Assembly: GCA_964388785.1 (NCBI GenBank)
Contig: CAYMBX010000001.1
Location: 1-60,525, forward strand
Source: an uncultured Gammaproteobacteria bacterium
GTDB taxonomy: Bacteria > Patescibacteriota > Patescibacteriia > UBA9934 > GWF2-40-263
Direction of reading: 5' to 3'
DNA: 60,525 bases
Shown here in pieces: positions 1-60,525 of the stretch (position 1 is its first letter; every line of letters starts with the position of its first letter). A program made the position numbers and the translations under genes. The notes beneath the pieces were generated by a model, which saw nothing but the letters and a program-made list of their open reading frames with translations, did not search any database and was not told the origin of the DNA.

Positions 1-1244
1 AGTCGCAACTGAAAAGCTATCAAGACATCCAACCGGTCATTTCCAAAGCGAACATCACCGACATCATGACAGTCGTTATGGCCGCCGCGCTTCAGTTTGG
101 AACGAGCGATGTACACATTGAGGCCGAGCAAGAAAAAATTGCGGTGCGTTTTCGTATCGACGGGGTTCTGCAAGAAGTCGCAACCCTTCCCCATGACGCA
201 TGGAAAAAAATCATCGCGCGCATCAAGTTGATTAGCGGGCTGAAAATCAACGTCACGGAGCGTCCGCAAGACGGACGCTTTACCATCTTCCTTAAAACCG
301 GCGACACGGACGTGCGTGTTTCCACTATTCCAACCACGTGGGGTGAATCGGTGGTGATGCGTATTTTGAAACCGAGCGCCATTAATGTGGAATTTGAACA
401 GCTTGGCTATCGTCCAATCGCCGAACAAAAATTGCTCAGAGAGATCATGAAACCGCACGGCATGGTCATGACCACCGGTCCAACGGGATCCGGTAAAACC
501 ACCACGCTGTATGCCATCCTTCGCAAGCGCAATACACCTGACGTGAAAATCGTCACACTGGAAGATCCAATCGAATACAAACTGGAAGGCATTAACCAGT
601 CGCAAATCGATCACTCGAAAAATTATACATTTGCAAACGGATTGCGTTCGATTCTGCGCCAAGACCCGGATATTGTCATGGTTGGAGAAATTCGTGATCT
701 TGAAACGGCAGAAGTCGCGATCAACGCGGCGCTCACCGGACATCTCATGCTTTCCACACTGCACACCAATGATGCTGCCGGAGCAATCCCCCGTTTTATC
801 TCCATGGGAGTCAAACCCTTTTTGCTCTCTCCAGCGCTCAACGCGATCATCGGACAACGTCTCTCAAGACGCGTATGCGAAAAATGCAAAGAGGTCGTCA
901 CGCCGACGGAAAAAGAACTTGCGTTTGTCAAAAAAGTGACGGCAGAAATTCCGGAAACGTCGGGAGAAAAAGTCGCGCCCGAGGCGGAATGGAAATTTTA
1001 CAAAGGGAAAGGGTGTGACGTCTGCAATCAATCCGGCTACAAAGGTCGATTGGGAATTTATGAGATATTGGTCATGAGTGATGAAATCAAAGCAGCGATG
1101 TCAGAATCGATCTCCGAATATCAAGTGCGAGAGCTTGCCAAGCAACAAGGGATGACGACGATGCAACAAGACGGGGTGCTCAAAGTGCTTGACGGCCTGA
1201 CAACCGTAGAAGAAATTTTGCGCGTTGCGGGTGAGGGCGCATAA
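1..1244 (+). CDS. pilB: Type IV pilus / type II secretion ATPase (PilB/GspE family), 5' end cut by the window edge
   Basis: Frame 3 is open from nt 3, so the M at 66 is not the true start. Walker A GPTGSGKTTT. VGEIRD and TGHLMLSTLHTND boxes. C-terminal CEKC...CDVC tetracysteine cluster typical of GspE/PilB. Confidence 0.9.
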   Translation, partial: SQLKSYQDIQPVISKANITDIMTVVMAAALQFGTSDVHIEAEQEKIAVRFRIDGVLQEVATLPHDAWKKIIARIKLISGLKINVTERPQDGRFTIFLKTGDTDVRVSTIPTTWGESVVMRILKPSAINVEFEQLGYRPIAEQKLLREIMKPHGMVMTTGPTGSGKTTTLYAILRKRNTPDVKIVTLEDPIEYKLEGINQSQIDHSKNYTFANGLRSILRQDPDIVMVGEIRDLETAEVAINAALTGHLMLSTLHTNDAAGAIPRFISMGVKPFLLSPALNAIIGQRLSRRVCEKCKEVVTPTEKELAFVKKVTAEIPETSGEKVAPEAEWKFYKGKGCDVCNQSGYKGRLGIYEILVMSDEIKAAMSESISEYQVRELAKQQGMTTMQQDGVLKVLDGLTTVEEILRVAGEGA

Positions 1245-1283
1245 AACAGGGATGCAAATTCGTGATCAACCAACGTTTGGTGA

Positions 1284-1328
1284 GGCACAAAGGCTCGTTC
1301 TGTGAGCTCTCGAACGAGCCTTTGTGCC
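1284..1328. repeat. REP-like hairpin, family 1 (17-bp stem GGCACAAAGGCTCGTTC, 11-nt loop)
   Basis: Perfect 17-bp inverted repeat read directly. A second copy in inverted orientation lies at 52004..52048, with a near-identical core GGCTCGTTC-N11-GAACGAGCC and 9/11 identical loop bases. Confidence 0.8.
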
Positions 1329-1378
1329 GTATCGGGATTGGACGTGCAGTAATATCACACCCAACTTTCAACCTGACA

Positions 1379-1446
1379 GACGATGTGGGTGTGCCGGAGG
1401 GAACAACGGCGACAGTCCGTTGGCCCGGAGGCATACCCACATCGTC
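1379..1446. repeat. REP-like hairpin, family 2 (core GCCGGAGGGAACAACGG-N7-CCGTTGGCCCGGAGGCA at 1393..1433 inside an outer stem GACGATGTGGGT)
   Basis: Outer inverted repeat 1379-1395/1430-1446 with one mismatch. The core recurs at 17744..17785 and partially at 19282..19296. Confidence 0.75.
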
Positions 1447-1479
1447 CACAAGCGTTGAGTAAAAAAACACCAGGTGCGC

Positions 1480-1776
1480 TCAGGCTACCTGGCAAGGAGG
1501 GAATCCGTCGAGATCAACTGTGAAGATATCCGGCGCGCCGTGTGCCTCAGGTGCGCACATGGGACATCCGCTCTCATCGAAACGCAGGACGACTCCCGCG
1601 CGATCGATGGTGAGACCGGCCTGAGCGAACAGCTCGGCAGCGGTCTCCAATCTGAGATCCATGCGTCCGCGGCAGCGGACGCAGTACGTTCGAACCGCAT
1701 CCGGATGGGCGCATTCCCTGCAAATCAATACCCGATCGGAATGTCGCCCGTTGTGATCGCAAACCGCGCATCGCAT
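1480..1776 (-). CDS. Small cysteine-rich (multi CxxC, zinc-ribbon-like) protein, function unknown
   Basis: 98-aa ORF with CAVC, CREC, CVRC and CPMC pairs. GGGAGG Shine-Dalgarno 6 nt upstream of the ATG. TTGACA-N17-TATTGT promoter at about 1800-1830 (minus strand). High GC. Confidence 0.6.
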   Translation of the reverse strand: MRCAVCDHNGRHSDRVLICRECAHPDAVRTYCVRCRGRMDLRLETAAELFAQAGLTIDRAGVVLRFDESGCPMCAPEAHGAPDIFTVDLDGFPPCQVA

Positions 1777-58111: not shown

Positions 58112-58450
58112 CTAGATTCCGAGGTCATCTACAGAGGCTTCGTCCGCGCTTGAAGCATAGGCTGGCGCTTCCGAGCGTGGGCGTGGACCGCGGGATCCTT
58201 CCGGCTCATAGATCTTCAAGTTGACGCGTGCATTTTCCTTTGCGCCGACGATCTTGAGCAGGGTGCGAACCGCGCGGGCTGTTTGGCCTTGGCGACCAAT
58301 GACGTAACCCATGTCCTCCGGATTGATGTGGAGGGTGATGAGCACGCCGCGCTCGTCGACGATACGTTCGGTGCGGACATCACTTGGATGATTGACGATC
58401 GCGCGCACGACGTATTCGACGAACTCTTGGTCGAACTGTTTGTCTGCCAT
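58112..58450 (-). CDS. KH-domain RNA-binding protein (YlqC/UPF0109 type)
   Basis: VIGRQGQTARAVRTLL GxxG KH motif. Sits next to trmD as in the conserved rpsP-KH-rimM-trmD neighbourhood. Confidence 0.85.
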   Translation of the reverse strand: MADKQFDQEFVEYVVRAIVNHPSDVRTERIVDERGVLITLHINPEDMGYVIGRQGQTARAVRTLLKIVGAKENARVNLKIYEPEGSRGPRPRSEAPAYASSADEASVDDLGI

Positions 58451-58578
58451 ATCAGTTTCAACAATTTACAATTCGTTTCTGATCTCTGTACGTCTGTCGA
58501 CCAAACGCGCAGAGCGCGTCAGACAGAGACACAGAACACAAGAAAGGATACGAAAAAAATTACGTCTTGTCAATCGAC

Positions 58579-59100
58579 TTAGGCGGCTCTTGTTTGTTGA
58601 TACGGACGCCGAGTCGCCTTCTGATAAAATTGTTCGAGTGCCCGTGTGGCAACGTCTTTTGCTTTTAATCCATTGACGCCCTGAAGAAAAAATTCCGTTC
58701 CTCTGCGATCCCGCAAAAAATCCTCCACCATTTTTGGATCACGCAACCGTTCGAGCACTTTTCCCAACTCCGGTTGTGAAAATTTCCAAGAGAGAAGATT
58801 TGAGGTCATCTCTGCGAGCAACTGATTAGCATCTTCCATTTTTTCTCGTTGCTGACGCTCTCCTACAGCCATGCTCGGTTGTGTATGTGCACGTTCCGGA
58901 GCCGGTGCCTGAGAGCGTTTCGCTTCTGTAGACTCGAGTGCCGCCAGTTCAGCCTCAAGTCCCCTCCGCCTTTCAATGGCAGCGAGACCTTTTTGGCTAT
59001 TCTTTCCAAACGTGGCGGTGACTTCGTTTGCTTGGTCAATCAAATCTTTTAGCTCTTCCGCGCTCCGAGGCGCCTCTGCGCGTCCTGTTTCTTTATGCAT
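58579..59100 (-). CDS. Hypothetical protein
   Basis: 173-aa helical, charged ORF. No motif recognised. Confidence 0.5.
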   Translation of the reverse strand: MHKETGRAEAPRSAEELKDLIDQANEVTATFGKNSQKGLAAIERRRGLEAELAALESTEAKRSQAPAPERAHTQPSMAVGERQQREKMEDANQLLAEMTSNLLSWKFSQPELGKVLERLRDPKMVEDFLRDRRGTEFFLQGVNGLKAKDVATRALEQFYQKATRRPYQQTRAA

Positions 59101-59167
59101 ATAATTATGAACAATTTAGCACAAAAACGAGAAAAAATCAAGTCGAAGCTATCCCCTACTTAAGGCC

Positions 59168-59196
59168 TTGACAGCATTTCAAACCTTTTATAAAAT
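59168..59196 (+). promoter_or_regulatory. rRNA operon promoter TTGACA-N17-TAAAAT
   Basis: Consensus boxes about 160 nt upstream of the 16S 5' end. Leader hairpin TCACACAA...TTGTGTGA at about 59258-59290. Confidence 0.65.
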
Positions 59197-59355
59197 GCGA
59201 CCGCTACTTGTCAGAAGCACCCAAATTTGACGAGAAGTTCATTCACAACTGAAGAGATCACACAAGAATCAACTTCTCTATTGTGTGATTGCAACGTTTG
59301 TTCCAATAGCAGAACTTCGGTTCTGCACAACACAGAGTCTTGATTACTCAAGATT

Positions 59356-60525
59356 TATACTGAGAGTTTGATCCTGGCTCAGGACGAACGCTGGCGGCAG
59401 GTCTAAGGCATGCAAGTCGAACGGGCGATTTTTTCTTCGGAAGGGATCGCTAGTGGCAAACGGGAGCGGAACACATTGGTAACCTACCTCGTGCTCGTGA
59501 ATAATTCACCGAAAGGTGGACTAATACACGATATGGATGGGGGGACTTCGGTCATTCCCATTGAAAGATTTATCGGCACGAGAGGGGCCTATGTCCTATC
59601 AGCTTGTTGGTGAGGTAATGGCTCACCAAGGCTATGACGGGTACCGGGCGTGAGAGCGTGGCCCGGCTCACTGGGACTGAGACACGGCCCAGACACCTAC
59701 GGGTGGCTGCAGTCAAGAATATTCCTCAATGCACGAAAGTGTGAAGGAGCTATGCCGCGTGCCAGAAGAAGGCCTTCGGGTCGTAAATGGCTTTTATGAG
59801 GGACGAACAAATGACGGTACCTCATGAATAAGGGGCTGCTAATCACGTGCCAGCAGCAGCGGTAATACGTGAGCCCCAAGCGTTGTCCGGATTTATTGGG
59901 CGTAAAGCGTCTGTAGGTGGTTTGGTAAGTCGTGCGTTAAATCTTCAGGCTCAACCTGGAGGCCGCGTGCGATACTGTCAGACTTGAGGACGGGAGAGGT
60001 GCACGGAATTGCCGGTGTAGCGGTAAAATGCGTTAATATCGGCAAGAACACCGAAGGCGAAAGCAGTGCACTGGAACGTATCTGACACTGAGAGACGAAA
60101 GCGTGGGGAGCGAATGGGATTAGATACCCCAGTAGTCCACGCTGTAAACGATGAGTGCTAGGTTTCGGGAGTATCGACCCTCTCGGAGCCGTTGAACCAA
60201 GCTAACGCGTTAAGCACTCCGCCTGTGGAGTACGATCGCAAGATTAAAACATAAAGGAATAGACGGGGACCCGCACAAGCGGTGGAGCGTGCGGTTTAAT
60301 TCGATGGTAAGCGAGGAACCTTACCTGGGCTTGAAAGACAGCTGCAAGCCTGCCGAAAGGTGGGCCGCTTTCGAAGGTGCTGTCTAGGTGCTGCATGGTT
60401 GTCGTCAGCTCGTGGTGTGAACTGTTCCCTTAAGTGGGGTAACGAGCGCAACCCTCATCCTGTGTTATACGTGTCACAGGAGACTGCCTTCGCAAGAAGG
60501 AGGAAGGTGAGGATGACGTCAAATC
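59356..60525 (+). rRNA. rrs: 16S ribosomal RNA, 3' end beyond the window
   Basis: AGAGTTTGATCCTGGCTCAG at 59363, 515-region GTGCCAGCAGCAGCGGTAATAC, GGATTAGATACCCCAGTAGTCC, and the window ends in GGATGACGTCAAATC (about E. coli position 1200). Confidence 0.97.

Follow-up and report, generated by a model that had tools for sequence, protein, structure and literature searches.

Bacterial genomes in which leaderless and Shine-Dalgarno (SD)-led translation initiation are mixed form group C of GeneMarkS-2, recognised in a survey of about 5000 genomes and found mainly in Actinobacteria and Deinococcus-Thermus (Lomsadze et al. 2018, PMC6028130). Within this group, the Pribnow box lies 6-8 nt from the start in leaderless genes of M. 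tuberculosis and the SD sequence of the other genes lies at a similar distance; genes classified by GeneMarkS-2 as atypical are usually lower in GC (PMC6028130). A text search of the main text of that paper did not find the word 'Candidatus'. In Parcubacteria, the CCTCCT motif is absent from about half of the 16S rRNA genes (Tsurumaki et al. 2022, PMC9297842). The present analysis concerns a 60,525-nt stretch of DNA (GenBank assembly GCA_964388785.1, contig CAYMBX010000001.1, positions 1 to 60,525 of the forward strand; hereafter the window), deposited as an uncultured Gammaproteobacteria bacterium and placed by GTDB in Patescibacteriota. Its genes fall into two classes, which differ both in base composition and in the signal preceding the start codon: low-GC genes with leaderless-type starts (class L) and GC-rich genes led by an SD sequence (class S).

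The window resembles group C in the spacing of its signals, as a -10-like box ends 4-13 nt before the ATG or an SD sequence lies 5-9 nt before the start. In group C, however, the split separates genes that are first in an operon from internal or leadered ones, whereas in the window an SD sequence also leads the first genes of class-S operons and is lacking from internal class-L genes. Moreover, the two classes of the window are 12 points apart in GC and 24 points apart in GC at third codon positions (GC3), a contrast which the group C paper does not describe. With the Parcubacteria that have lost the anti-SD motif, the window shares membership in the Candidate Phyla Radiation (CPR) and a large number of genes that do not use SD pairing. 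It differs from them in that nearly half of its genes use a strong SD sequence and that a related locus, L022 (loci of relatives are given L-numbers, such as L004 or L060), retains GGATCACCTCCTTT at the 3' end of its 16S rRNA, which shows that the clade has kept an intact anti-SD. Genomes with mixed initiation are already known, as is compositional heterogeneity; here both are met in an uncultured phylum. Neither the use of leaderless versus SD-led starts nor GC heterogeneity in CPR was the subject of any paper found in a literature search.

Other comparisons are offered by acquired genomic islands, GC-biased gene conversion and the NrtR regulon. Lawrence and Ochman are said to have modelled in 1997 the amelioration of horizontally acquired islands. 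The GC-rich blocks of the window are like such islands in their gene-bounded atypical composition, their own terminators, their patchiness, a hotspot between the SMC and ribosomal protein S16 genes and one tRNA-adjacent block. They are unlike them in the lack of mobility genes, in being GC-richer rather than GC-poorer and in making up about 44% of the coding sequence; in addition, their nearest homologues belong to the same clade or locus, their offset scales 1:1 with host GC and they bear no signature of amelioration. Recombination-associated GC3 heterogeneity and GC-biased gene conversion in bacteria were reportedly described by Lassalle et al. in PLoS Genet in 2015. Lasting within-genome GC3 differences among native genes and a class-specific equilibrium are features in common, but the GC3 effect in the window (+0.24) is, so far as is known, far above the size reported. 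To our knowledge, a link of GC3 heterogeneity to the mode of translation initiation has not been described. The NrtR regulon of NAD metabolism, reportedly defined by Rodionov et al. in NAR in 2008, is matched by a Nudix and winged helix-turn-helix NrtR encoded beside NAD salvage genes, with palindromic operators overlapping promoters. The likeness applies to part of the window, where, unlike in the described regulon, an operator also precedes an operon for a PP2C phosphatase, a 648-aa kinase-like protein and a 117-aa protein; we know of no report linking NrtR to these genes.

The gene model of the window was derived from two-class codon statistics, and 67 open reading frames (ORFs) were scanned for Pfam families. 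In 500-nt windows GC ranged from 0.39 to 0.65. The GC3 of individual genes was bimodal, with means of 0.48 and 0.71 in a two-Gaussian fit (Bayesian information criterion, BIC, -76.3, versus -68.1 for one Gaussian), and the bin of 0.58-0.62 held no gene. Class L comprised about 56% of the coding bases (GC 0.48, GC3 0.49) and contained housekeeping genes, regulators and some accessory genes. Class S comprised about 44% (GC 0.60, GC3 0.73) and contained the NAD and CoA cofactor operons, an RNA ligase, the PP2C/kinase-like module and Nudix genes, as well as many small lineage-specific genes. A first-pass annotation, made from the sequence alone, had described a gene-bounded mosaic with 12 GC-rich blocks, and all 12 coincided with genes of GC3 at least 0.62. 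Outside the blocks, this value was reached only by the MFS gene 19325-20539 (0.62) and by the KH gene (0.65), which the same annotation had named as a caveat to GC as a criterion. The KH gene is leaderless-type, and its excess of GC is not conserved in relatives. The suggestion that the CooC/decarboxylase/CysK operon makes up a third, lowest-GC class was not sustained. A three-component fit was worse (BIC -70.1), and these genes (GC 0.44-0.45, GC3 0.43-0.45) use the low-GC start signal and lie within about one standard deviation of the low-GC class (0.48 +/- 0.05), so no third class is needed. In both classes, GC1, GC2 and GC3 stood in the relation predicted from overall GC by regressions said to come from Muto and Osawa and from Lawrence and Ochman; there was no GC3 deficit, and thus no trace of amelioration was seen. 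Regional, isochore-like GC variation was also considered but not adopted: spacer GC was 0.51 between GC-rich genes and 0.47 between low-GC genes, a difference that was not significant in this small sample, and the enrichment would lie mainly in coding sequence.

The strength of SD sequences was scored without reference to any chosen start, as the best anti-SD duplex over every candidate start within the first 70 codons. A duplex free energy (dG) of -7 or lower was reached in 22 of 30 GC-rich genes and in 5 of 34 low-GC genes (Fisher p=2.7e-6). At internal in-frame start codons, the corresponding rates were 2.0% in GC-rich and 4.7% in low-GC genes, so base composition is not the source of the SD signal. 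With curated starts, four of which were exact matches to deposited proteins, dG of -5.8 or lower was obtained for 27/29 GC-rich and 4/34 low-GC genes (p=2e-11), which bears out the earlier proposal of two initiation modes bound to two compositional classes. All 19 starts listed in the first-pass annotation as SD-led carried GGAGG, AGGAG or a close variant, and the housekeeping genes listed there as lacking an SD sequence had dG of +0.7 to -3.0 kcal/mol. The SD sequences of class S (GGAGG/AAGGAG) sit 5-9 nt ahead of the start; where promoters could be assigned, they were of the sigma-70 type and lay about 30 to 230 nt upstream, leaving a 5' untranslated region (5'UTR), and most of these units end in an intrinsic terminator of their own.

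Upstream of low-GC genes another signal was found. A TAnnnT/TATAAT-like hexamer ending 4-13 nt before the start preceded 20 of 34 low-GC genes and 1 of 30 GC-rich genes. Its variants were TATAAT, TATACT and TACAAT, often TGn-extended, and its 3' end peaked 6-9 nt ahead of the ATG; in the TrmB gene, nrtR, g44127 and g44840, TATACT stood 8-11 nt ahead of the ATG. A T at position -1 was present in 30/34 low-GC and 4/29 GC-rich genes, compared with 12% before internal ATGs, and when unambiguous starts from the window and the loci of relatives were pooled, the respective shares were 86% for class L and 13% for class S. The start codon of low-GC genes was ATG in 33/34 cases, and a T at -1 together with an A at +1 occurred in 30/34. 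Transcription starts typically have this layout: a purine (+1) preceded by a pyrimidine (-1), 6-9 nt beyond a -10 box. Given the position of the box and the T at -1 with A at +1, class L mRNAs are most likely leaderless or nearly so.

To place the organism, relatives were collected with a scan for the 769-aa SMC protein in one genome per GTDB species (185,579 species genomes). The scan yielded 34 loci with 46-77% identity, the closest SMC being 77% identical. About half of the loci are labelled Candidatus Uhrbacteria and the others Parcubacteria or Patescibacteria; 13/34, including both closest matches, are third-party metagenome-assembled genomes (MAGs) labelled 'uncultured Gammaproteobacteria'. 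Loci with sufficient flank had local synteny in common with the window, the syntenic block comprising at least 10 genes, and the 16S rRNA identity between the window and its relatives was 83-90%. The SMC and 16S identities, together with the synteny, indicate that the organism is an unsampled species of Candidatus Uhrbacteria (CPR/Patescibacteria), a clade whose genomes range from about 37 to 63% GC. The window, which is a complete contig, ends within the 16S rRNA gene, which lacks its 3' end, so the organism's own anti-SD tail lies outside the window.

The coupling of composition and start signal was tested in the window and 23 relatives, a set of 24 loci that each have 12 or more genes, and the Spearman correlation of GC3 with SD dG was negative in 23/24 of them. 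Among 450 pooled genes of the 23 relatives, an SD sequence was present in 75/112 high-GC and 48/234 low-GC genes (p=8e-17), and a -10 box in 14/112 and 110/234, respectively (p=9e-11). The GC3 offset of the pooled relatives' genes was bimodal (dBIC 52), and the offset of a gene in the window correlated with the mean offset of its orthologues in relatives (rho 0.81, p=1.5e-4). The state of the start, SD or box, was kept per gene family. The SMC and g44127 genes retain a -10 box 7-9 nt before the ATG, also in genomes of 56-63% GC. In SMC orthologues this is TGnTATAAT, including those of L008, L009 and L020 (56-59% GC), with no box recovered at the candidate SMC start of L029. In g44127 the box (TACAAT/TACACT-type) is kept in 17/17 orthologues scored. 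Synteny, an SD sequence and a GC above that of the neighbouring genes are all kept in the orthologues of g43108, g45705, g46356, g56617 and the NAD operon; compared with core genes, GC was higher in 7/8 relatives for g43108, in 8/8 for g45705 and in 6/6 for g46356. The g56617 gene has 37%-identical homologues at the same site in L023 and L043, and a homologue between S16 and TrmD carries the SD sequence GGAGGAGG. The NAD operon is SD-led in L037, L039, L040 and L060, and in the first three it is GC-richer than the flanking Dtd, NDK, NrtR and M20 genes. Regression of the GC3 of high-GC orthologues on host core GC3 gave a slope of 1.02 +/- 0.25 and an intercept of +0.14. As the slope is about 1, the offset is constant and does not reflect a donor pool of fixed composition. 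Two accessory genes, 44840-45655 (without a counterpart in any syntenic relative) and 58579-59100, belong to class L in both GC and start, whereas the NAD operon, which is widely conserved, belongs to class S in both; GC class therefore follows the type of start and not patchiness.

These data are best accounted for, in our view, by a native, clade-wide organisation of the genome into two classes and not by recent foreign import, a conclusion which we regard as probable. In class L, a -10 box ending 4-13 nt before the ATG would place the transcription start at or near the A, and the mRNA would be translated leaderless; in class S, an ordinary upstream promoter would give a 5'UTR with a canonical SD sequence, mostly closed by the gene's own terminator. 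A gene's class, composition and start signal alike, would be inherited with the gene across Uhrbacteria, and the GC offset would therefore be a steady-state property of the class and not the fossil composition of a recent donor. In its widest form, in which Uhrbacteria and perhaps other CPR hold two stable compartments tied to mRNA architecture, with a GC3 offset of +0.14 to +0.25 passed on within each gene family over order-level divergence and kept by a class-specific force and not by import, the statement may almost as readily be true as false. As to the cause, it can be tentatively proposed that a pressure linked to the mode of expression keeps the offset: constitutive, highly transcribed leaderless genes might be held AT-richer, for instance by nucleotide cost in a nucleotide-scavenging symbiont, and conditionally expressed leadered genes would be closer to an equilibrium of higher GC. 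The chief competing cause, though an unlikely one, is GC-biased gene conversion acting on class-S genes, which are the more readily exchanged.

The first-pass annotation had read the blocks as the result of repeated horizontal acquisition from a high-GC donor, possibly the host of an episymbiont, and an import of this kind, recent and from outside the CPR, with each block bringing its own SD sequences, had to be weighed. Gene-bounded GC-rich blocks with SD sequences and terminators, a strongly different dinucleotide signature, GC1/GC2/GC3 values at a 60% GC equilibrium without a trace of amelioration, and a partial tRNA duplication adjoining one block would all fit it. Taxonomic affinity, tested for six GC-rich families (NadE, DUF1439, g43108, g45705, g46356 and g56617), points elsewhere, as their closest relatives were Uhrbacteria, Parcubacteria or contigs with Uhrbacteria-like synteny. 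The best NadE homologues (54-66% identity) came from Uhrbacteria or Parcubacteria; everything below this top tier was at most 43% identical, and named non-CPR matches reached about 38-40%. DUF1439, which has one of the two highest GC3 values, is described as a mainly proteobacterial family, which would fit an import. Only 4 homologues of this protein were found in 5.8 billion proteins, and the two that were looked up (L042 and L043; 64% and 45% identity) adjoin SMC or S16 in Uhrbacteria-like contigs, with GC3 of 0.73-0.77 compared with 0.40-0.47 in their neighbours. In the genome pairs compared, no GC-rich gene stood out as more similar than the core genes beside it (NadE 63% versus SMC 62%; DUF1439 64% versus core genes 60-91% in L042), and no protein at least 90% identical to any of six tested window proteins was found among 15 billion sequences. 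Homologues of the PP2C/648-aa module came from contigs whose GC was 0.37-0.73 and were all only 31-47% identical. The offset and the SD sequences persist in orthologues at 83-90% 16S identity, a distance at which synonymous sites are saturated, so that an ancient import should have ameliorated; the slope of 1.0 on host GC3 speaks against a donor as well, and some 44% of the coding sequence would need a foreign origin. A taxonomic affinity common to all genes, named beforehand as the observation opposed to acquisition, was found for every gene tested. For the six families, a donor from outside the clade is contradicted by these sequence comparisons, and for the window such an origin is very improbable. 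What stands of the acquisition claim is that several GC-rich blocks are accessory; a foreign donor is not supported by the genes tested. The lineage is of the episymbiont type, being CPR, but import from a high-GC host was not upheld for the tested genes.

A viral origin was also considered and rejected, as relatives of the RNA ligase on IMG/VR contigs were only 25-30% identical and none were found for the 648-aa protein.

The edges of the blocks were examined for terminators, repeats and hairpins. As the first-pass annotation had noted, strong intrinsic terminators stand at most block ends, and they are listed here together with the hairpin element and the tRNA gene.

5082-5063: terminator of the 262-aa gene
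6806-6785 and 9869-9891: terminators of the block 6805..9891
17677-17694: terminator of the NAD operon
17827-17812: terminator at the end of gene 17820-19160
37274-37288: terminator of the 218-aa gene
38550-38527: terminator of the PP2C/648-aa/117-aa operon
43109-43096: terminator at the end of g43108
45704-45687: terminator at the end of the Nudix block
54291-54274: terminator of the island between SMC and S16
57378-57400: terminator of g56617
1385-1440 (copy 1), 17736-17792 (copy 2, plus strand) and 19277-19296 (partial copy 3): hairpin element of about 56 nt
36254-36328, minus strand: intact tRNA-Glu(UUC), in the repeat region 36254..36507

The hairpin element, likewise anticipated by the first-pass annotation, is present in two full copies and a partial one. 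It has a predicted folding energy of -37 kcal/mol (z -6.7) and the core TGCCGRAGGGAACAACGG...AGTCCGTTGGCCCGRAGGCA. The sequence of the outer stems varies between copies and the pairing is kept in both. Copy 1 lies directly downstream of gene 1480..1776. The element matched no Rfam family, with only sub-threshold microRNA-like hairpin matches, and no copies were found in the related loci fetched. The tRNA scar claimed earlier is real: a perfect 31-nt direct repeat (36314-36344/36477-36507) duplicates the first 15 nt of tRNA-Glu, the only tRNA of the window, together with upstream sequence. Its copies enclose 132 nt and not a block, and the GC-rich gene 36619-37275 begins 112 nt away; no integrase was found near the repeat. 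The convergent overlap of a block with trmD was also confirmed, g56617 (56617-57372) and trmD (57345-58064) overlapping by 28 nt. The g56617 terminator falls inside the 3' coding end of trmD, and the hairpin is common to both genes.

Several observations weigh against a native two-class organisation, limit it or would suit a more mobile set of genes. Class S is patchier than class L among relatives (p=6e-4). GC-rich blocks are absent at the same locus in L004, L018, L031 and L060 and present in L008, L010, L023, L042 and L043: genes 54290-55693 and 56617-57372 are missing from the closest relative, L004, L018 and L031 have no genes 38566-41801 between AI-2E and ribH, and L060 lacks 17226-19160. 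Hairpin copies 2 and 3 flank gene 17820-19160, which is among those missing in syntenic L060. In most relatives (L005-L032, about 12.3-20 kb of each locus), the SMC-S16 interval holds 2-8 kb of small GC-rich genes of about 110-200 aa, mostly on one strand, with a Pfam match in at most 1/4 of them and four with MopE-type metal-binding repeats. It is a high-turnover island, as only 29/94 of its genes have any homologue among each other, and the window contains a reduced, three-gene version. The dinucleotide signatures of the two classes differ strongly (delta* 129, compared with 25-30 for random halves), and class S is nearer to high-GC Uhrbacteria loci (L011 58, L029 62) than to the class L of its own genome (129), as would be expected of a foreign or separate pool of genes. 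In L060, the orthologous SD-led genes have a GC of only 0.44-0.55, in a locus without core genes to compare them with. At third positions, the GC and AT skews of the two classes do not differ and are close to 0, which leaves transcription-coupled deamination unsupported as a cause of low GC. The comparative sample consists of three genomic neighbourhoods picked by synteny to the window, not of whole genomes. Finally, the leaderless state of class L is deduced from motif position, and the T at -1 may partly reflect translational context, several such class-L genes being operon-internal.

This could be explained by flux within the clade, with GC-rich SD-led genes as a flexible pool moving laterally among Uhrbacteria or other CPR, perhaps from members of 59-63% GC. 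The SD sequence would then be a portable start, whereas a leaderless gene needs a promoter exactly at its ATG everywhere, and repeated transfer, with or without GC-biased gene conversion, would keep the genes GC-rich. The patchy distribution and the insertion or deletion of blocks at conserved junctions, the mostly orphan small genes of the SMC-S16 island, the dinucleotide affinity to high-GC Uhrbacteria loci, the hairpin repeats around 17820-19160 and the blocks with their own terminators would agree with it, as would g43108, of which one site holds two versions, with identities of about 55% and about 34%. Yet no GC-rich gene was closer to a relative than the flanking core genes, the synteny of GC-rich genes is kept, and the slope of 1.0 against host GC3 disfavours a shared pool whose composition is fixed. 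No integrase, transposase, conjugation, plasmid or phage Pfam family was found among the 67 ORFs scanned, and the viral relatives of the RNA ligase are distant. GC-rich operons would, moreover, be wired to the native NrtR regulator. Flux within the clade is on the whole a rather unlikely explanation, and the native two-class organisation is retained as the preferred one.

An artefact was likewise taken into account, since the source is a MAG with dozens of sharp switches in composition, and a chimeric contig or bin mixing low-GC and high-GC organisms might produce such a picture. However, two independently assembled Logan contigs were 100% identical to the window across junctions (12713-20457 and about 9598-12695), the latter passing from a high-GC region through NrtR into another high-GC region. 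The adjacencies ribE-g43108-g44127-Nudix-TrmB, SMC-DUF1439, S16-g56617-TrmD and NrtR-NAD operon recur in independent MAGs (NCBI, JGI, ENA and Logan), and the switches occur at gene boundaries, with promoters and operators common across them. The mis-assembly that the first-pass annotation had wished to see excluded is hardly credible.

The two classes are connected through the predicted NrtR regulon. The palindrome GTGTA-N3-6-TACAC was found at 3 sites in the window, compared with 0.02 expected, and each site overlaps a -10 box.

9938-9951: predicted NrtR operator 1, overlapping the promoter of nrtR itself
10669..10681, plus strand: predicted NrtR operator 2, GTGTAATATACAC, overlapping the -10 box of the NAD operon
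41974-41988: predicted NrtR operator 3, overlapping the promoter of the PP2C/648-aa/117-aa operon

The nrtR promoter is TTGACA-18-TATACT (11/12 match), with the -10 box 10 nt before the ATG. From operator 2 downstream to the SD-led start at 10845, the distance is about 165 nt. The promoter of the PP2C operon is TTGACA-17-TATATT (42006-41978), with a 5'UTR of about 170 nt. The operator motif was also present ahead of NrtR in L038 and L039. On the evidence of predicted operators in their promoters, the class-L regulator NrtR would control two class-S operons, and these GC-rich operons would therefore be integrated into native regulation. On unrelated metagenome contigs, homologues of the PP2C and 648-aa proteins also adjoin NrtR and NAD salvage genes, and the gene context suggests that the PP2C/648-aa/117-aa operon encodes an unrecognised NAD-linked signalling module. 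The operator, which ties a PP2C/kinase-like module to NAD metabolism, provides a functional lead.

If the two-class organisation is true, it would represent a previously unreported, isochore-like heterogeneity in bacteria, and a large share of CPR core genes would be translated leaderless; leaderless translation is predicted to be the default for core genes in an uncultured phylum with reduced ribosomes. If it extends to whole genomes, CPR genes would be mis-called by any gene caller or start predictor built on a single codon model and a single start signal. Compositional detectors of horizontal gene transfer would flag nearly half of an Uhrbacteria genome, and claims of host-to-symbiont transfer made from GC only would be unsafe. 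Orthologues with a persistent offset in genomes of 37-63% GC would offer a natural test of whether mutation, nucleotide cost or biased gene conversion determines bacterial GC content.

The genes of the window are listed below in order, with annotations from Pfam where given.

1480..1776, minus strand: GC-rich SD-led gene, 98 aa, no Pfam match (GC3 0.63; GGGAGGTG 6 nt ahead of the ATG, dG -11.5)
1873..3847, minus strand: low-GC operon of TsaD (2843-3847), TsaE (2415-2828) and a 181-aa gene (1873-2418), identified by Pfam TsaD/TsaE; no SD sequence (dG +0.6, -0.5 and -0.7), T at -1, ATGA stop/start overlap
5081..5869, minus strand: GC-rich SD-led gene, 262 aa, no Pfam match (GC3 0.72; GAGGAG, dG -8.6)
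5963..6748, minus strand: low-GC TrmB-family regulator, leaderless-type, TATACT 11 nt before the ATG, T at -1
6805..9891, no strand assigned: GC-rich block (GC3 0.69-0.81; SD sequences GGAGG, CAGGAGA and GGAGGG) of an Rnl1-like RNA ligase (6805-8028, minus) and ORFs 8204-8959, 8956-9648 and 9600-9884 (plus)
9957..10625, plus strand: low-GC NrtR, Nudix and winged-helix NAD regulator (Pfam NrtR_WHD 1e-26)
10845..17694, plus strand: GC-rich NAD salvage/synthesis operon with an SD sequence at every start (GC3 0.65-0.80; Pfam), comprising NMNAT-like 10845-11450, ADP-ribosylglycohydrolase 11450-12580, NAPRTase 12827-14116, glutamine-dependent NadE 14223-16271, Nudix 16419-17210 and Nudix 17226-17678
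17820..19160, minus strand: GC-rich SD-led gene, 446 aa, DFP-like domain (Pfam DFP; AAGGAGGG, dG -12.3)
19325..20539, plus strand: MFS transporter of intermediate composition (GC 0.53, GC3 0.62), weak SD sequence AAAGGAAAA; the start agrees with the Logan gene call
20529..20916, minus strand: low-GC pair of CsbD-like (20722-20916, leaderless-type) and DUF3008 (20529-20720) genes
21078..23202, plus strand: GC-rich SD-led operon of Amidohydro_2 (21078-21974), DFP, CoaB-like (21971-22657) and Flavoprotein, CoaC-like (22654-23202), SD dG -8.3, -9.0 and -9.5
23273..36161, no strand assigned: long low-GC stretch without SD sequences (GC3 0.36-0.55; T at -1 in 11/13), with a 270-aa gene, a 782-aa gene, ABC-F, a zinc-finger protein, MFS, three unknowns and a Fur-like gene
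32522-36161: operon of CbiA/ParA-like, Orn/DAP-decarboxylase and CysK-rhodanese genes (Pfam)
36619..37288, plus strand: GC-rich SD-led gene, 218 aa, no Pfam match (AGGAGGAG, dG -10.3)
38527..41988, minus strand: GC-rich SD-led operon of PP2C phosphatase (40953-41801), 648-aa kinase-like (39004-40950) and 117-aa (38566-38919) genes
42043..43073, minus strand: low-GC ribH and ribE, no SD sequence, -10-like boxes 4-6 nt before the ATG, T at -1
43096..44049, minus strand: GC-rich SD-led gene g43108, 313 aa (GGGAGGAG, dG -11.6)
44127..45655, no strand assigned: low-GC leaderless-type genes 44127-44819 (plus) and 44840-45655 (minus), TATACT 8-9 nt before the ATG
45687..46619, minus strand: GC-rich block of Nudix (45705-46208), 73-aa (46141-46362) and 87-aa (46356-46619) genes
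46794..54270, no strand assigned: low-GC conserved core of TrmB, HSP20, VanW, ClpP (minus), DHH (minus) and short SMC (52078-54270) genes (Pfam) with leaderless-type starts, found in 9-30 relatives
54274..55693, minus strand: GC-rich SD-led island between SMC and S16, with a 70-aa gene (54290-54502), DUF1439 (54678-55244, GC3 0.89) and a 92-aa gene (55415-55693)
56118..56531, plus strand: low-GC ribosomal protein S16, T at -1, TATAAC box
56617..57400, plus strand: GC-rich SD-led gene g56617, 251 aa (AGGAGG, dG -10.3)
57345..59100, minus strand: low-GC TrmD (57345-58064), KH/KhpA and a 173-aa accessory low-GC leaderless-type gene
59356..60525, plus strand: 5' part of the 16S rRNA gene, 1170 nt (Rfam SSU 1085.8 bits, model positions 1-1191), cut by the contig end

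The reading frames of ORFs 8956-9648 and 9600-9884 differ, and the two have 49 nt in common; the second lacks an SD sequence, and the pair may represent a single gene with a frameshift or a sequencing error. DUF3008 (GC3 0.50) stands alone among the clearly low-GC genes in having a very strong SD sequence (GAGGAGGTG, -13.2 kcal/mol); it and the CsbD-like gene are both missing in the syntenic relative L060. The start of SMC indicated by homology is an ATG 39 codons inside the longest ORF (window position 52078), where a degenerate TACCAC box is present. Insertions in 16S rRNA are common in CPR, and the full 16S rRNA gene of L022 (18290-20193) is 1904 nt long against a 1533-position model, and so carries one. 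In L011, a related Patescibacteria locus, a SAM-I riboswitch was detected at 19259-19361, with a score of 47.3 bits relative to a gathering threshold of 44.4.

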